The notes below the pieces were generated by a model. It saw nothing but the letters and a program-made list of their open reading frames with translations. It was not told the DNA's origin and did no database searches. The position numbers were made by a program, and so were the translations under genes. Shown here one piece after another: positions 9,694-60,418 of a stretch of DNA of 64,000 nucleotides. The stretch is from a virus (Duplodnaviria > Caudoviricetes): the IMG/VR virus record IMGVR_UViG_3300003937_000325; one strand, 5' to 3'. The first letter of the stretch is position 1, and each line of letters starts with the position of its first letter.

Positions 9694-9720
9694 ATCTTTT
9701 ATTTTATAAATATGCTACGT

Positions 9721-11637: not shown

Positions 11638-11657
11638 AACGTTTTTTATTATAAATA

Positions 11658-20372: not shown

Positions 20373-20393
20373 GTTTATAAATAGTGAGTTTTA

Positions 20394-26446: not shown

Positions 26447-26962
26447 ATGAAAAAGATACTACTAATATTACTAACACTTATTTCTATCGTAAGTTACTCA
26501 CAGGACTTAGGTGAAATACAAAGACATTTACTGAATTTAGTAAATGAAGAAAGAAGTAATAGAGGTTTAAGTACTTTTGTAACCGACACACTAATAAATA
26601 ATGGGGCTAAAATACATACCGATTACTTAAGTACGATAAGAAGTTACAAACAAGTGTCCCACACTAATCCTAACTTAAAATATAAATACCCATCTGATAG
26701 AATTAAAATTGCAAGTAATTCAAAATATACTAATTCATCAGAAAATGTAACCGCGTTTACCTACGACTCATCTAAAACAGATTTAGAAATCGCTACACAA
26801 GCTCATAATAATTTTATGAATTCAAAATACCATAAAATGAATGTTTTAACTGAATATGGGGATTATCTTAATGAAGGTTATATATTACCAAGTCACTATG
26901 GTCACCACGTTGTTTACAATAAAAAATTGAATGCAATTATTGTAGTTCAAATGTTTCCGTAA
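26447..26962 (+). CDS. Secreted CAP (SCP-like) domain protein
   Basis: Signal peptide MKKILLILLTLISIVSYS; LLNLVNEERSNRGL...H...SENV...FMNSKYHKMNVL pattern. Confidence 0.75.
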   Translation: MKKILLILLTLISIVSYSQDLGEIQRHLLNLVNEERSNRGLSTFVTDTLINNGAKIHTDYLSTIRSYKQVSHTNPNLKYKYPSDRIKIASNSKYTNSSENVTAFTYDSSKTDLEIATQAHNNFMNSKYHKMNVLTEYGDYLNEGYILPSHYGHHVVYNKKLNAIIVVQMFP

Positions 26963-36161: not shown

Positions 36162-36176
36162 TACTTTATAAATATG

Positions 36177-36937: not shown

Positions 36938-37417
36938 ATGAAAAATATACTATTCCTTTTATCTTTACTCATCACATTAGTTGGATGTGAGAAATACGAA
37001 CTAGAAACTTACCCTACATTAGATGGTACATACCTTGTTAGTTTTATTAGACACGATGGTGTCAATACCTATGAAGGGTACGATGAAAATAACACAACAT
37101 ATGATGGTATGGTATCTACAACTATTGGTGATTTAAATGTTGGTACTGAAAAGGTTTCATTTAGTGGTAGAACTTTCTACAAAGGTTATCAAGTAACTCA
37201 AGGAAGTGATGATTGGACCGAATCATATTACTGTGAAGTGATTCAAGGAATCGATGGTTATTGGGATGATTTATTGATTGATTATGACGGACTCCCAAGG
37301 AACTTTATAATTGAAGAAGATGGTTTAGAACATTTGGTACTAAAATTTCCTAATCAACACTTGAATAATGGTGAAAATGTTAATATGTGGATTAGACTCT
37401 CAAGAGTAGGTCCTTAA
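36938..37417 (+). CDS. Lipoprotein (lipocalin-like fold possible)
   Basis: Lipobox LVG-C after a hydrophobic signal; LDGTY motif; TATCTTTG promoter element at 36906-36913. Confidence 0.7.
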   Translation: MKNILFLLSLLITLVGCEKYELETYPTLDGTYLVSFIRHDGVNTYEGYDENNTTYDGMVSTTIGDLNVGTEKVSFSGRTFYKGYQVTQGSDDWTESYYCEVIQGIDGYWDDLLIDYDGLPRNFIIEEDGLEHLVLKFPNQHLNNGENVNMWIRLSRVGP

Positions 37418-37945: not shown

Positions 37946-37959
37946 AACTATAAATAGTC

Positions 37960-47540: not shown

Positions 47541-48023
47541 TCAGTATCTGTTAAGTAGAAAAGGAATTGATAAACCCGCACCAAATTCTATAGTATTAGA
47601 AACATTTAGAATCAAAGCGATGTCTATTGAACGTGAATTTTGAGTAATAAGTTTAATTGGGTGTAGTCTAATCATTACATCGGGGTAAAAATCCGCAGGT
47701 TCACTTGTATAAAGAACCATTTTACCCCCAACCCCTACATTGATACCGTTTCTTAAAAATCCATAATTAATACCTAACCTATTTGGGTAGGCTCCCGTTT
47801 GATTTATAATCGGGACCCCTCCAGTGTTAATTATATTTAATTGGCCCGTAGTATATATTCCCCATGGGGCATATGGGTTACGACTATTGATTACAGATGT
47901 GTTAATATTATCTGTGGAAAGAAATAAGTCTCCACTACCAAATAACACACCAACCGTAGATGATTGTGAATAAACATTAGATATTGTCAGAAAAAATGTA
48001 ATAATAATTGTAGTAAATCTCAT
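47541..48023 (-). CDS. Secreted / outer-membrane beta-rich protein
   Basis: Signal peptide MRFTTIIITFFLTISNVYS; alternating Gly/hydrophobic strands. Confidence 0.55.
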   Translation of the reverse strand: MRFTTIIITFFLTISNVYSQSSTVGVLFGSGDLFLSTDNINTSVINSRNPYAPWGIYTTGQLNIINTGGVPIINQTGAYPNRLGINYGFLRNGINVGVGGKMVLYTSEPADFYPDVMIRLHPIKLITQNSRSIDIALILNVSNTIEFGAGLSIPFLLNRY

Positions 48024-56886: not shown

Positions 56887-56973
56887 AAAAAAATAATATT
56901 TTTAGTAAAACTTAAAGAAATATTACTTATATTTGTACCAACGAAATAATTAAACATTTAAAAAAATAAAAAC

Positions 56974-57153
56974 ATGGGTAAAGAAGAAACAATTGCACCT
57001 GAGGTGAAGTCAAAAGTAGAAGAGTACGCTTACAAGCACTACAAAATGTTCAAAAACAAAACACTTTTAATTAGTGAGAAAGAGAATTGTTTTCTCGTGT
57101 CTTCACACAAAGACGGCTCACCATTAGTGTTAGGTAAATCAATTTTAAATTAA
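56974..57153 (+). CDS. Small hypothetical protein (59 aa), not in the ORF track
   Basis: MGKEETIAPEVKSKVEEYAYKHY...; follows a TATATTTG element and A-rich leader. Confidence 0.6.
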   Translation: MGKEETIAPEVKSKVEEYAYKHYKMFKNKTLLISEKENCFLVSSHKDGSPLVLGKSILN

Positions 57154-57162
57154 ATAATTAAT

Positions 57163-57450
57163 ATGGCTTATAAAAATCAAAAAGGTGAGAACCTTTATCT
57201 ATTTGGTTGGTTGGAAGCTCCCGCAGGAACTGTGGGTACTAAAGACTTCCGACCAACCACAGGAGGGAATAGTGAATGGGCAATGACCAAACGTGAGGCA
57301 ATCGCTAAAGTTAATCGACAACAAAAAGAGTCTCAAAAAAAGTATCCAACTCATGTTCGTTTACGTGTGGACCCTAATACTGTTAGGAGAGCAAAGACTT
57401 ATGAACAGTTCGCATCTTTTGATAGAGGTCTAATTATGATGACCATTTAA
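57163..57450 (+). CDS. Hypothetical protein (95 aa)
   Basis: Clean ATG ORF; YLFGW...GGNSEWA pattern. Confidence 0.65.
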   Translation: MAYKNQKGENLYLFGWLEAPAGTVGTKDFRPTTGGNSEWAMTKREAIAKVNRQQKESQKKYPTHVRLRVDPNTVRRAKTYEQFASFDRGLIMMTI

Positions 57451-57542
57451 CGTTTTTTGGGAACCAATAATGTGATTATAAGAAGGTAAGTTTTGTATTT
57501 ATAGTGTTAAACTAAACAATTCAAAACTTATCTCTCTTAATA

Positions 57543-59147
57543 ATGAAAAAAATACTATTTTTATTAATCTTCCTAAACACATTTTTAGTAAAAGGTCAAT
57601 GTGACATTTCAATTAATGACTTTAATTTTACCACAGGAGAATTAGTGGTGGAAGTCATTAACTCAGAAAACTGTGGATGTAATGACCTCACCGATGTTGA
57701 AACCACCTGTAATACTTCAAGTAGTGGTTCTATTCAAAATAATGAAACAATAAGTCATATTGTTTTAGGTTTACACTTAGATGGTTTTGATTACCAATGG
57801 ACTGATTGCGTCAGTGGTAATAACCATCCAGGGTGGACCTTTAAAAGTAAAAGTTTTTTTGGTAATTCTGTTTTAGAAACAGGCGACACATGGAGTACTA
57901 ACATCTATGATTTTTATGGCTCCACCAATGACTGCTGGTCCGATATTTTATCAAATAATGAAGAGTGTGTTGAATTAGTCATTTGGCAAATTAACCTATC
58001 TCAAACTTCTGAAGTTGCAGATGGAGGATGGGCAGTTAATCCTAATGTGGCTAATCAAACTCAAAATTATCCTGATTTTAATTTATTAGACAATGTGGTT
58101 ACTATGTGTCCTGTGGTTTTCCCTGGTTGTACCGACCCTTTCGCACTAAACTATAATGAGGACGCAACAGAGGATGACGGTACTTGTGTTTTTTCAATAG
58201 GTCCCGACCCAATCATAATTGATGTTACTATTTCTGAAGAAGAATGTGAAGTATTTGATGCGGGTATTTTATCATCATTCGTTTATGAAGCAACTTTAGT
58301 AAACATAGGGACTGAAGCGGTTACAAATTTTTGCCTTAGTGATTTTTTAGGTACCACTTTTAATTGTTTTAATGGGGTTTCTAATTTAGCAGTCTGGATT
58401 CAACCTGGAGATACGATTACCGTGAGTGGTACGATTAATGGAGCGGGTACATGGATATCAGGACAAGGTAATTACTTTACAATTACGAGTGTACCTAATG
58501 AAATTATTACTGGTAATAATAACTTTGTATTTAATATGGTAACCGGTGTTGATTGTGAACTACCTCCACCCCCATGTGATACTATATACGTAACTGAAAC
58601 AGAATTCTTAACTGACACTATCTACGTAACTGAAACAGAATTCTTAACTGACACTATCTACGTAACTGAAACAGAATTCTTAACTGACACCCTTTATATA
58701 ACACAAACCCTTACGGATACAGTAGAAGTCTTGGTGGATAATTACATTTATGAAACTGATACACTAACAGTTATTGAAACTCAGTTAATTGATTGTGAAA
58801 CTGGAGAAGAATGTGTTGACCCACCAGGATTAAGTGAATGTTGGCCTTGGACAGTTTATATCCCAAATACGTTCACCCCAAATAATGACGGAATTAATGA
58901 TATATGGCAAATTATATATGATTTAGATTGTTGGGTTGACGTGGAGTTTAAAATTTTTAATAGGTGGGGGTCTCAAATATATTATGGATTTGTTGAGGAT
59001 TTTGAAACTTACCCGTATTGGGATGGGAGTATAAATGGTGGAGATTATTATGTTTCAGATGGGGTATATCTTTACACTTTTTATGGTCGTAAAAGTGATT
59101 CACCTGAGATTTTAGAGGAGTCTGGATATATAACAATATTTAGGTAA
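57543..59147 (+). CDS. Secreted protein with type B T9SS C-terminal domain (gliding-motility-associated CTD / CHU_C)
   Basis: Signal peptide; GCTDPFALNYNEDATEDDGTC repeat; C-terminal IPNTFTPNNDGIND.W...IFNRWG...WDG...GVY...GYITIFR. Confidence 0.85.
   Translation: MKKILFLLIFLNTFLVKGQCDISINDFNFTTGELVVEVINSENCGCNDLTDVETTCNTSSSGSIQNNETISHIVLGLHLDGFDYQWTDCVSGNNHPGWTFKSKSFFGNSVLETGDTWSTNIYDFYGSTNDCWSDILSNNEECVELVIWQINLSQTSEVADGGWAVNPNVANQTQNYPDFNLLDNVVTMCPVVFPGCTDPFALNYNEDATEDDGTCVFSIGPDPIIIDVTISEEECEVFDAGILSSFVYEATLVNIGTEAVTNFCLSDFLGTTFNCFNGVSNLAVWIQPGDTITVSGTINGAGTWISGQGNYFTITSVPNEIITGNNNFVFNMVTGVDCELPPPPCDTIYVTETEFLTDTIYVTETEFLTDTIYVTETEFLTDTLYITQTLTDTVEVLVDNYIYETDTLTVIETQLIDCETGEECVDPPGLSECWPWTVYIPNTFTPNNDGINDIWQIIYDLDCWVDVEFKIFNRWGSQIYYGFVEDFETYPYWDGSINGGDYYVSDGVYLYTFYGRKSDSPEILEESGYITIFR
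58578..58691 (+). repeat. Three tandem 36-bp coding repeats (DTIYVTETEFLT) plus a partial copy
   Basis: GA[TC]ACTAT[AC]TACGTAACTGAAACAGAATTCTTAACT x3; copies 2 and 3 identical. Confidence 0.95.
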
Positions 59148-59148
59148 T

Positions 59149-59568
59149 ATGAAAACATTACTAATCCCATTACTTCTCTTTATACCATTTAACTCTATTT
59201 CCCAATGTCAACAATATGTGTTTTCAACTGTTCCTGCAACGGAATGGTCCACATGGACATATGTCAATTGTGAAACATTAGATACTAACACATTTAGTAT
59301 ACCATGTTGTCAATACACTTTACCTCGTTGTGCAATCATAGGTTCACCAACTTTAATCGAAGGTGACGGGTTCCATGCCCTAATGGTTAATCCTGTAGGG
59401 GAACCTTGGGAAGATTGTGAACAATACAATGAGGAACCATGTGTTGGTGACATTGATGGTGACGGAATCATCACTGTTTTGGATTTATTATTATACCTTT
59501 CAGAACCGTATGTAGGTATAGGTGATTTAGAAGGTATTATTCAGAATTTTGGAAATCAATGTGATTAA
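59149..59568 (+). CDS. Secreted Cys-rich protein with C-terminal dockerin/EF-hand-like motif
   Basis: Signal peptide; CVGDIDGDGIITVLDLL...DL..IIQNFGNQC. Confidence 0.7.
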   Translation: MKTLLIPLLLFIPFNSISQCQQYVFSTVPATEWSTWTYVNCETLDTNTFSIPCCQYTLPRCAIIGSPTLIEGDGFHALMVNPVGEPWEDCEQYNEEPCVGDIDGDGIITVLDLLLYLSEPYVGIGDLEGIIQNFGNQCD

Positions 59569-59626
59569 TTTAAAATATTAATTTACTGATAAGTTTTTTT
59601 ATCTTATATTATTACAAATTAATAAT

Positions 59627-60013
59627 ATGAGATTAGCACTTATTGCCCATGACGGTAAAAAATCAGATATGGTAGCGTTTGTCATGAAACGTTTAAAATT
59701 CTTTAACAACAACAACGTATCATTAGTAACCACAGGTACAACAGGTAAAAAAATTACACACGCAGGTATCGATAAAGTTGAAGCAGTAAACAGTGGTCCT
59801 TTAGGTGGTGATGCTGAAATTGGGGCTATGGTTACTCGTGGAGAAATAGACGGTGTAATATTCTTTAGGGACCCGTTAGATAAACATCCACACGATGTAG
59901 ATATTTCAATGTTAATGAGGTTATGTGATGTTCATAATATACCGTTAGCCACCAATTATAAGAGTGGACATATAATGGTTAAATATTTTGATTCTAAGTT
60001 GAATGTGAATTAA
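59627..60013 (+). CDS. mgsA: Methylglyoxal synthase
   Basis: LIAHDGKK, TTGTTG, SGPLGGD, FFRDPL..HPHDVD...L.RLCDV.NIPLATN. Confidence 0.95.
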   Translation: MRLALIAHDGKKSDMVAFVMKRLKFFNNNNVSLVTTGTTGKKITHAGIDKVEAVNSGPLGGDAEIGAMVTRGEIDGVIFFRDPLDKHPHDVDISMLMRLCDVHNIPLATNYKSGHIMVKYFDSKLNVN

Positions 60014-60036
60014 ATTTTTATTATAATTAAAACGTT

Positions 60037-60418
60037 ATGAACACTAAAAACAAAAAACATCTTATAGTTATTGGTCACCCCGACCACAAATCACGAATTA
60101 GAAAATGGTGGTGAAACGTATAAAATAATTGATGTCTATGAAGATAAATTACATAGAAACAAAGAAGAGCTGATTAAAGAATATCAAAGTTTAGTTACGT
60201 GGTCAACTCACATTTATTTTATATCTCCCGTTTGGTGGTTTAGAATGGTACCTAAAATGGAAACCTTTTTTGATGAGGTTTTTACACCTGGATTTGCCTA
60301 TAAATTTGTACCTTTATTTGGTATGTACGCATACCCAAAACCATTTCTTAGTGATAAAAAAGTTAGAACATATATCACACATGGGGCACCGATGTTAAAA
60401 AACGTAAGAAATATTTAG
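60037..60418 (+). pseudogene. Disrupted NAD(P)H-dependent oxidoreductase (Flavodoxin_2 / MdaB-KefF-like)
   Basis: Frame 1 MNTKNKKHLIVIGHPDHKS runs to TGA at 60112-60114; a second frame carries IIDVY...FISPVWWF..P..F.DEVFTPGFAY...THGAP and stops early. Confidence 0.75.

Follow-up and report, generated by a model that had tools for sequence, protein, structure and literature searches.

A T4-like marine jumbo phage encodes a predicted type B cargo of the host type IX secretion system together with a dockerin-like partner

What use might a phage have for a protein that carries the signals by which Bacteroidota export and display surface proteins of their own? The question is raised by one gene (product P0001) in a 64,000-nucleotide stretch of viral DNA, IMG/VR record IMGVR_UViG_3300003937_000325 (Duplodnaviria; Caudoviricetes), here called the window. 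An earlier note on this DNA, made from the letters alone, had described the product as a phage-encoded substrate of the host type IX secretion system (T9SS). We suggest that the phage probably does use the host T9SS to put this protein, hereafter the cargo, on the surface of the infected cell. Observed directly are its sequence signals, their conservation, the location of the gene on a phage genome, the polymorphism of a repeat within it and its pairing with a second gene. A phage-made cargo for the envelope-export pathway of the host is, taken as a whole, the best explanation of these observations, and we hold it with moderate confidence; the part of it that concerns export and display, as predicted from the sequence, appears to us fairly likely.

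Every sequence requirement of a type B T9SS cargo is present in P0001, and secretion by that system is predicted, in line with the earlier proposal. At the N terminus, M-K-K is followed by a hydrophobic core of 13 residues and by V-K-G, after which comes Gln19 (read by eye), and a structural model of the protein has a helix at residues 2–13; the Sec signal noticed earlier is kept in the 51 relatives of the larger family alignment. Gln occupies position +1 in 43 of these 51 relatives and in all 7 of the 7 partner proteins introduced below. A rule specific to Bacteroidetes, the Q-rule, describes signal peptidase I substrates that expose an N-terminal Gln, which is then cyclised (PMC5837995, PMC10653852), and phage proteins following it have already been noted in Porphyromonas phages (PMC10367356). 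At the other end, the C-terminal sorting domain (CTD) scores 51.4 bits against PF13585 (CHU_C; cut-off 27) and 38.7 bits against TIGR04131 of NCBIfam (cut-off 35), passing both curated thresholds, as would be expected of the complete type B CTD that had been read in the sequence. Since its last matched residue is 532 out of 534, the domain lies at the extreme C terminus, and the model of it has a predicted local distance difference test score (pLDDT) of 80–88. The CTD residues that vary little or not at all within the family fall in the blocks P-N-T-F-x-P-N-x-D-G-x-N-D, N-R-W-G, W-x-G, D-G-V-Y-x-Y and G-x-I-T-x-F-R.

The CTD is matched at E <= 1e-3 by 26,316 representative clusters. Among the CTDs sampled on long contigs outside the cargo family, the four nearest all sit among phage-type genes; three of these four contigs hold nothing shuttle-like beside the CTD gene, and in two the CTD gene lies beside an M43 peptidase. 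Two CTDs that are a little more distant lie on contigs of bacterial appearance. These six samples, too few for proof, hint at a phage-adapted CTD lineage and a wider occurrence of phage-borne type B cargo. The four nearest type B CTDs sampled, 45–50% identical, are those of contigs L018, L019, L020 and L021, on which lie genes for DNA modification of the queuosine type, ThyX, HNH, an Hc1-like gene or an amidase.

Protein searches returned 889 matches to the cargo, the full-length ones ranging from 99% down to about 35% identity and the source being nearly always marine metagenomes; family alignments of 23 and 51 relatives and two AlphaFold models underlie the results given here. The cargo is a cysteine-rich and extremely acidic protein, its mature form having 19 Cys and 82 Asp and Glu versus 7 Lys and Arg. 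Across the 51 relatives 11 of the 19 Cys are invariant, which bears out the Cys-rich region described before. Over residues 1–340, the passenger, the same alignment has 34 invariant columns, and we conclude from these that the passenger is under selection. No enzyme signature was found in the cargo, and a PHROGs search gave no family for either the cargo or its partner (P0122).

The window belongs to a T4-like jumbo phage and is not host contamination. Among its genes are those for a portal and a large terminase, both of T4 type, for a Gp23-type capsid protein and for a prohead protease, together with six tRNAs, and all genes between about 50 and 64 kb have counterparts in the same order on a 162-kb viral contig (L001). 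The cargo gene is present in seven IMG/VR contigs (L001–L007), the seawater DNA runs with nearly identical DNA number at least 14 and come from at least 11 studies, and contigs of independent DNA runs bridge both borders of the gene. With the phage genes, the synteny with L001 and the bridging contigs in hand, the check for contamination or chimerism that the earlier note had proposed was negative, and its description of the gene as phage-encoded stands. The nearest virus record (G001), a 50-kb fragment estimated to be 14% complete, is without the cargo gene. Judged by its capsid protein (42% identity) as well as its terminase (top match), the nearest cultured phage is Flavobacterium phage immuto. 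Indirect clues to the host are the Q-rule site, the O-glycosylation sequons described below and a nearest cultured phage that infects Flavobacterium.

The passenger itself points to phages as well. Its N-terminal domain (residues 19–194) has 30 invariant columns in alignment A5 and, in the family, seven invariant Cys, and keeps the motifs N-C-G-C-N and W-Q-I-N-L-S. The domain model (predicted template modelling score 0.67) retrieved only generic FN3/Ig sandwiches in a fold search, with a best Z of 5.8, and in a structure atlas its nearest cluster was its own family, 100% Viruses. No match was obtained when the passenger profile was searched against PDB sequences, and no usable match when the N-terminal domain was searched against a language-model atlas; a fold search with the model of the whole cargo gave only generic tandem sandwiches (transglutaminase, PorU, RbmA) and was uninformative. 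A scan of prokaryotes (185,579 species, one genome each) found two relatives of the N-terminal domain, both on phage-like contigs of metagenome-assembled genomes (MAGs), their neighbours being a chaperonin and DUF285 in one case and an ATP-dependent DNA ligase, Mom and a GMP reductase in the other. Since the only matches sit on phage-type contigs, we regard the passenger as a phage-only family as far as seen in these word-based and pattern-based searches, which could miss distant cellular relatives.

It might be asked whether the gene nevertheless stems from contaminating host DNA, from a chimera made in assembly or from the recent capture of a host gene that has no role in the phage, given that databases call its relatives 'gliding motility-associated' proteins and that three relatives lie in MAGs labelled Pseudomonadales (L008), Flavobacteriaceae (L009) and Akkermansiaceae (P0078). 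The taxon labels of such MAGs are unfit for host inference, because both contigs examined carry phage-type genes (the chaperonin, DNA ligase and Mom just mentioned), and L008 and L009 are probably phage contigs binned with bacteria. Moreover, the cargo and its partner occur as a pair in the seven IMG/VR contigs, and many other long contigs that bear phage genes have the pair too; there is synteny with L001 on both flanks, contigs of independent runs cross both borders, and the N-terminal domain was seen in no cellular context among the species genomes scanned. An origin of this kind is, in our judgement, exceedingly improbable.

Between the N-terminal domain and the stalk lie two further modules. 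The small Cys-bounded one, which no Pfam model matches, occurs in 0, 1 or 3–4 copies across the cargo relatives (alignment A1) and may be a calcium-binding or disulfide-locked spacer. Its consensus, C-[TM]-D-x-x-A-x-N-[YF]-...-D-D-G-[ST]-C, is also found on L010 (6607-6666, 6799-6858 and 7240-7299) and L009 (8547-8606). The second Ig-like domain (residues 219–338) is modelled as all-beta with a pLDDT of about 80. Of the 'Ig/CARDB-like' description given earlier, the Ig-like sandwich is therefore upheld by the model, but the CARDB part is not: Pfam CARDB (PF07705) gave no match to these residues at E <= 1, and the resemblance is one of motif only.

The Thr-rich stalk with its 36-bp tandem repeats was recovered as the earlier note had it (Table 1). 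A point absent from that note is that the stalk is an array of Bacteroidota O-glycosylation sequons. The sequon of these bacteria is D(S/T)(A/I/L/V/M/T) (PMC8550257), and 6 of the cargo's 7 sequons fall within the 96-residue stalk; shuffles preserving stalk composition had a mean of 1.05 sequons, with 3 of 10,000 reaching six. Across the 51 relatives, in which stalks of 82–220 residues hold 5–13 sequons each, sequon density is 6.8 per 100 residues in the stalk versus 0.31 in the rest of the protein, a 22-fold difference, and the D-T pairs are the nearly invariant portion of each repeat unit. The model of the stalk has a pLDDT below 40. Glycosylation of the stalk is predicted from these sequons.

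The earlier note had also supposed that the repeats allow the stalk to vary in length, and this is what is seen in the population. The single 90%-identity cluster to which P0001 belongs contains alleles of 522, 534 and 546 amino acids (aa), each on several contigs, which when aligned differ only by having 2, 3 or 4 in-frame 12-residue units. The variation comes from these protein clusters; the read mapping that had been proposed for it was represented by the contigs of four runs, in which no indel is visible because the assemblies break within the repeat, at 58610/58661.

When in infection might such a protein be made? The motif that the earlier note had seen upstream of the gene, TATTTATA, is indeed there, and its placement at starts goes beyond chance; the range given in that note begins at 57496, a position that belongs to the motif, and the open reading frame (ORF) starts at 57543. 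In the window TATTTATA occurs 20 times (for example at 436, 9705-9712, 11650-11657, 20376-20383, 36167-36174 and 37949-37956), versus 17.5 expected by chance, and 12 of the 20 copies are within 50 nt upstream of a start on the same strand, where 0.6 would be expected and at most 4 were seen in 1000 trials. One copy precedes the head maturation protease. The 12 start-linked sites lie 3–39 nt, mostly 3–17 nt, before the start; if TATTTATA is a promoter, leaders would be very short. The placement of the T4 late motif, TATAAATA, is much weaker, 3 of 20 sites being start-linked. Sharing a start-associated motif with head-module genes makes the cargo gene compatible with late expression. Scans for sigma-70 promoters and for terminators gave nothing beyond chance, and 56900-60200 holds no terminator-like site. 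Two metatranscriptome libraries, each made in a different study, have contigs that cover the cargo gene and extend over 56900-59105.

That shared motif, and the frequency of Ig-like domains on virions, would also suit a virion or post-lysis protein, in which the Ig-like and CHU_C-like sandwiches act as binding modules and the CTD is no secretion signal. T4-like particles, however, assemble in the cytoplasm, and the 11 invariant Cys of the cargo call for an oxidising compartment; a signal peptide that can be cleaved, with Gln at +1, is conserved in the family, the co-encoded partner is likewise predicted to be secreted, and the nearest structural gene is 20 kb away, the cargo gene being surrounded by tRNA and metabolic-type genes. 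Because of the conserved signal peptide and the periplasm-type cysteines above all, we consider a virion role improbable.

Not mentioned in the earlier note is the partner gene, P0122, which begins after a gap of 1 nt behind the cargo stop and whose product ends in a D-x-D-G-D-G loop followed by a short helix. It goes with the cargo in all the related loci that were examined, including those set among different neighbouring genes: it is downstream in L001–L004 and L007, upstream in L006, L012 and L013, and two genes off in L008. To their L001 counterparts the cargo is 70% and the partner 74% identical, most flanking genes being 82–98% identical, and in L002, L004 and L005 the pair is found in a different neighbourhood; this lower conservation and these differing neighbourhoods mark the pair as a mobile, faster-evolving cassette. 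A profile of the partner family matches both repeats of the dockerin 2y3n_B in the PDB (E 6e-4), and the partner scores 12.8 bits against Pfam Dockerin_1 (PF00404), under the cut-off of 22.9, with one repeat rather than two. We therefore call it dockerin-like but not a member of that family.

Does the partner dock onto the cargo? A check for cohesin in the Ig-like domains of the cargo gave no Pfam or PDB sequence match, the folds being generic sandwiches with Z of 5.8 or less, and a complex prediction for passenger residues 19–340 (51 alignment rows) with partner residues 19–139 (7 rows) scored 0.00, which weighs neither way. In distant relatives the gene preceding that of the type B cargo encodes an M43 metallopeptidase, which has a type A CTD-like tail and either one or two dockerin-like repeats (Table 1), and at L009 6981-9833 an M43 peptidase is fused to the cargo, the fusion being without the dockerin-like motif. 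Docking of dockerin-tagged proteins on the cargo would give such gene pairing, which is circumstantial, and we regard docking of the partner onto the passenger, judged from these sequence features, as possible though short of an even chance.

As the earlier note had stated, no PorP/SprF-like shuttle is recognisable nearby. PF11751 had no match among 37 mid-sized and large window ORFs scanned separately and does not figure among the matches listed (25 of 64 families) when all 76 ORFs of the window are taken; five related viral records lack it too, and these have exactly one CHU_C gene each where the region is complete. As the downstream gene encodes a 139-aa soluble-type protein and PF11751 was not found, the cargo is filed as an orphan type B cargo. 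Orphans are known: in Flavobacterium johnsoniae 3 of 12 type B cargoes have no linked shuttle and use one in common, Fjoh_1677, whose gene is unlinked, and there is some cross-talk between shuttles (PMC12618676), so that the want of a linked shuttle does not disqualify the cargo.

An orphan cargo with no shuttle of its own must, on the other hand, compete for that of the host, which brings in the idea that its function is to jam: the CTD would flood the translocon or an SprF-like shuttle and so block the host's type B adhesins, such as SprB-like gliding adhesins that serve phages as receptors, the passenger being secondary. Overproduced type B fusions stay unsecreted unless a shuttle is co-produced, implying that shuttles are limiting (PMC12618676), and Flavobacterium phage resistance is reported to map to gliding-motility and T9SS genes (bioRxiv 10.1101/2020.10.02.323337; PMC9804748). 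The phage-adapted CTD lineage suggested by the four nearest outside-family CTDs would fit too. A pure decoy, however, needs neither the conserved passenger, with its 34 invariant columns and the seven invariant Cys of its N-terminal domain, nor the long sequon-rich stalk, nor a dedicated secreted partner, all of which are kept. Because these go unexplained, pure jamming is the less likely reading, and we think it rather unlikely.

We thus return to export and display. In the scheme that we propose, Sec would take the cargo to the periplasm, where signal peptidase I would cleave before Gln19 and the many Cys would form disulfides. In Bacteroidota, Gln exposed at such a cleavage normally becomes pyroglutamate. 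The general O-glycosylation system of the host would decorate the D-T-[I/L/V] sites of the stalk, the type B CTD would guide the folded cargo through the T9SS translocon, and a PorP/SprF-type shuttle, which must be the host's own and unlinked since the phage encodes none, would hold it at the cell surface; type B cargo is reported to remain bound to PorP-like surface proteins (PMC9143113). The predicted product is an acidic, non-enzymatic adhesin-like protein with two Ig-like domains raised on a glycosylated stalk, whose length would shift by gain or loss of 12-aa units, and onto which a small secreted partner with a dockerin-like calcium loop, made together with the cargo, would dock.

The cargo would probably serve to change what the infected cell shows on its outside at a late stage of infection. 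The T5 lipoprotein Llp blocks the FhuA receptor of that phage. By analogy with Llp, and because Flavobacterium phage resistance is reported to map to gliding and T9SS genes as noted above, we tentatively suggest a receptor-masking purpose, in which the cargo would mask or displace a receptor or gliding adhesin and so spare further phages, or progeny, from the infected cell and its debris; this is one candidate role, and others together are more probable. A broader and more speculative idea, which we put forward as doubtful, is that of a phage-only, ocean-wide two-part module forming a miniature scaffold on Bacteroidota cells. Its orphan cargo, on a variable glycosylated stalk, would capture dockerin-tagged partners (in this phage the small Cys-rich protein, in relatives an M43 metalloprotease, fused to the cargo in one lineage), and its own CTD lineage would be tuned to a conserved host shuttle. 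If true, such a module would let the phage control what the dying cell displays.

Several points weigh against export and display as proposed. Every transport, modification, binding and functional step in the scheme is one that we infer. Pairing of type B CTDs with shuttles is specific (PMC12618676), and a phage cargo without its own shuttle may be poorly secreted. The D-T-[ILV]-Y pattern also suits a beta-strand-rich repeat, so its conservation could be structural, and recent duplication of the 36-bp unit inflates the sequon count in the P0001 allele. The dockerin-like motif of the partner is a single loop-helix under the Pfam cut-off. A late-promoter role of TATTTATA is deduced from its placement only, and the contigs of the RNA libraries may contain DNA, the partner region (59147-59574) being left uncovered, a hole in low-depth contigs.

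Table 1. Coordinates of the cargo locus and of M43 genes in distant relatives; positions are those of the window unless a contig is named.
Feature	Position	Strand	Basis and remarks
Cargo gene P0001, 534 aa	57543..59147	+	stop TAA 59145-59147; ORF reading
Sec signal peptide, residues 1-18	57543..57596	+	predicted cleavage G18/Q19 (Bacteroidetes Q-rule); sequence read by eye
N-terminal Cys-rich Ig/FN3-like domain, residues 19-194	57597..58124	+	alignment, model
Small Cys-bounded module, residues 196-215	58128..58187	+	C-T-D-P-x-A-L-N-Y-N-x-x-A-T-E-D-D-G-T-C; alignment, regex scan
Second Ig-like beta-sandwich, residues 219-338	58197..58556	+	model; CARDB-like by motif only
Stalk, residues 339-434	58557..58844	+	PPPP-C linker, D-T-[ILV]-Y repeats (6 sequons), Cys-containing neck
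36-bp tandem repeat, 3.2 copies, 97% matches	58577..58690	+	Tandem Repeats Finder; each unit = 12 aa, one D-T-I sequon included
T9SS type B C-terminal sorting domain, residues 435-534	58845..59144	+	Pfam match 440-532 (profile 3-86 of 86)
TATTTATA motif	57496..57503	+	39 nt upstream of cargo ATG; candidate late-type phage promoter or start-associated element
Partner gene P0122, 139 aa	59149..59568	+	signal peptide S/Q-C, 8 Cys, C-terminal dockerin/EF-hand-like loop-helix
M43 genes of distant relatives	L010 4773-5999; L018 2920-5004; L021 2839-5004		

Elsewhere in the window, three more exported proteins are encoded at 47544-48023 (-), 26447-26959 (+) and 36938-37414 (+). They include a 160-aa protein with a signal peptide (Gln at +1), a C-terminal aromatic residue as in outer-membrane barrels and no Pfam match, a weak CAP/SCP-like protein (19 bits, below cut-off) and a lipoprotein with an L-V-G-C lipobox. 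A flavodoxin-like ORF at 60071-60418 has 115 aa, its counterparts in L001, L002, L004 and L005 having 196–210 aa, and it may be truncated or split in the window genome.

The combination on one viral gene of three independent marks of the Bacteroidota envelope, namely a Q-rule site, O-glycosylation sequons and a type B domain, gives a strong and testable assignment of an abundant uncultured marine phage to a Bacteroidota host. If the cargo is displayed, giant marine phages actively re-dress cells of the Flavobacteria type, which have a major part in breaking down algal particles, and adhesion, aggregation and phage adsorption would be affected. Its orphan CTD would be a naturally evolved signal that has to work with a shuttle whose gene lies elsewhere, presumably in the host, and could help to define shuttle recognition, a question open in PMC12618676. 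The dockerin-tagged partners, proteases included, suggest a way to hold proteins without a CTD at the surface.

How does this locus compare with systems already known? The role proposed for the cargo resembles that of T5 Llp, a phage envelope protein that alters the surface of the infected cell against superinfection and loss of progeny. Llp follows the lipoprotein pathway, and the sequence, export route and host of the cargo are unrelated to it, so that the analogy is purely functional. Cohesin–dockerin pairs of the cellulosome offer a second likeness, in that each of the calcium-binding loop-helices in a type I dockerin (that of Cel48, 2y3n) can be aligned with the partner's C terminus and that a secreted protein is predicted to hang on a surface-anchored scaffold; unlike these, the partner has one loop-helix rather than two, and no cohesin model matches the cargo. 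Like the substrates of the Tannerella forsythia O-glycoproteome (PMC8550257; reviewed in PMC12871550), the cargo is a predicted Sec-exported protein with D(S/T)(A/I/L/V/M/T) sequons, but the cargo has its sequons crowded together in a short stalk of tandem repeats, a type B domain follows, the gene is viral, and glycosylation is predicted.

What the cargo has in common with SprB/SprF and other linked pairs (PMC12618676; PMC9143113) is the kind of sorting domain and the expected fate, which is to be held at the surface by a PorP-like protein rather than attached covalently to lipopolysaccharide (LPS). SprB is a huge repeat adhesin with its shuttle gene directly downstream; the cargo has 534 aa, the gene downstream of it encodes a 139-aa soluble-type protein and not an outer-membrane barrel of about 300 aa, and PF11751 was not found. 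[quoted passage not shown] The cargo differs from them in being phage-encoded, in its unrelated passenger, found only in phage-type contigs, and in the dockerin-like partner that always comes along.

Finally, phage T9SS cargo is already known in principle. The Cryophage of Bellas et al. (2020) carries three type A T9SS cargo genes, which vary between phage variants and for which those authors proposed an altered infected-cell surface or secretome (PMC7468147), and T9SS sorting-domain proteins have been seen in crAss-BACON contigs (PMC6949934). The cargo and the Cryophage genes are alike as phage-borne genes with a T9SS sorting domain. The Cryophage domains, however, are of type A (PorV route, cleaved, LPS-anchored or released) and sit on enzymes and a PA14 protein, whereas the cargo is of type B and has a binding-type passenger and a sequon stalk; the literature searched holds no phage-borne type B cargo. 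What the present locus adds is the type B orphan route, a signal peptide obeying the Bacteroidetes Q-rule, a sequon stalk with population-level variation in length, a phage-only passenger and an obligatory dockerin-like partner.

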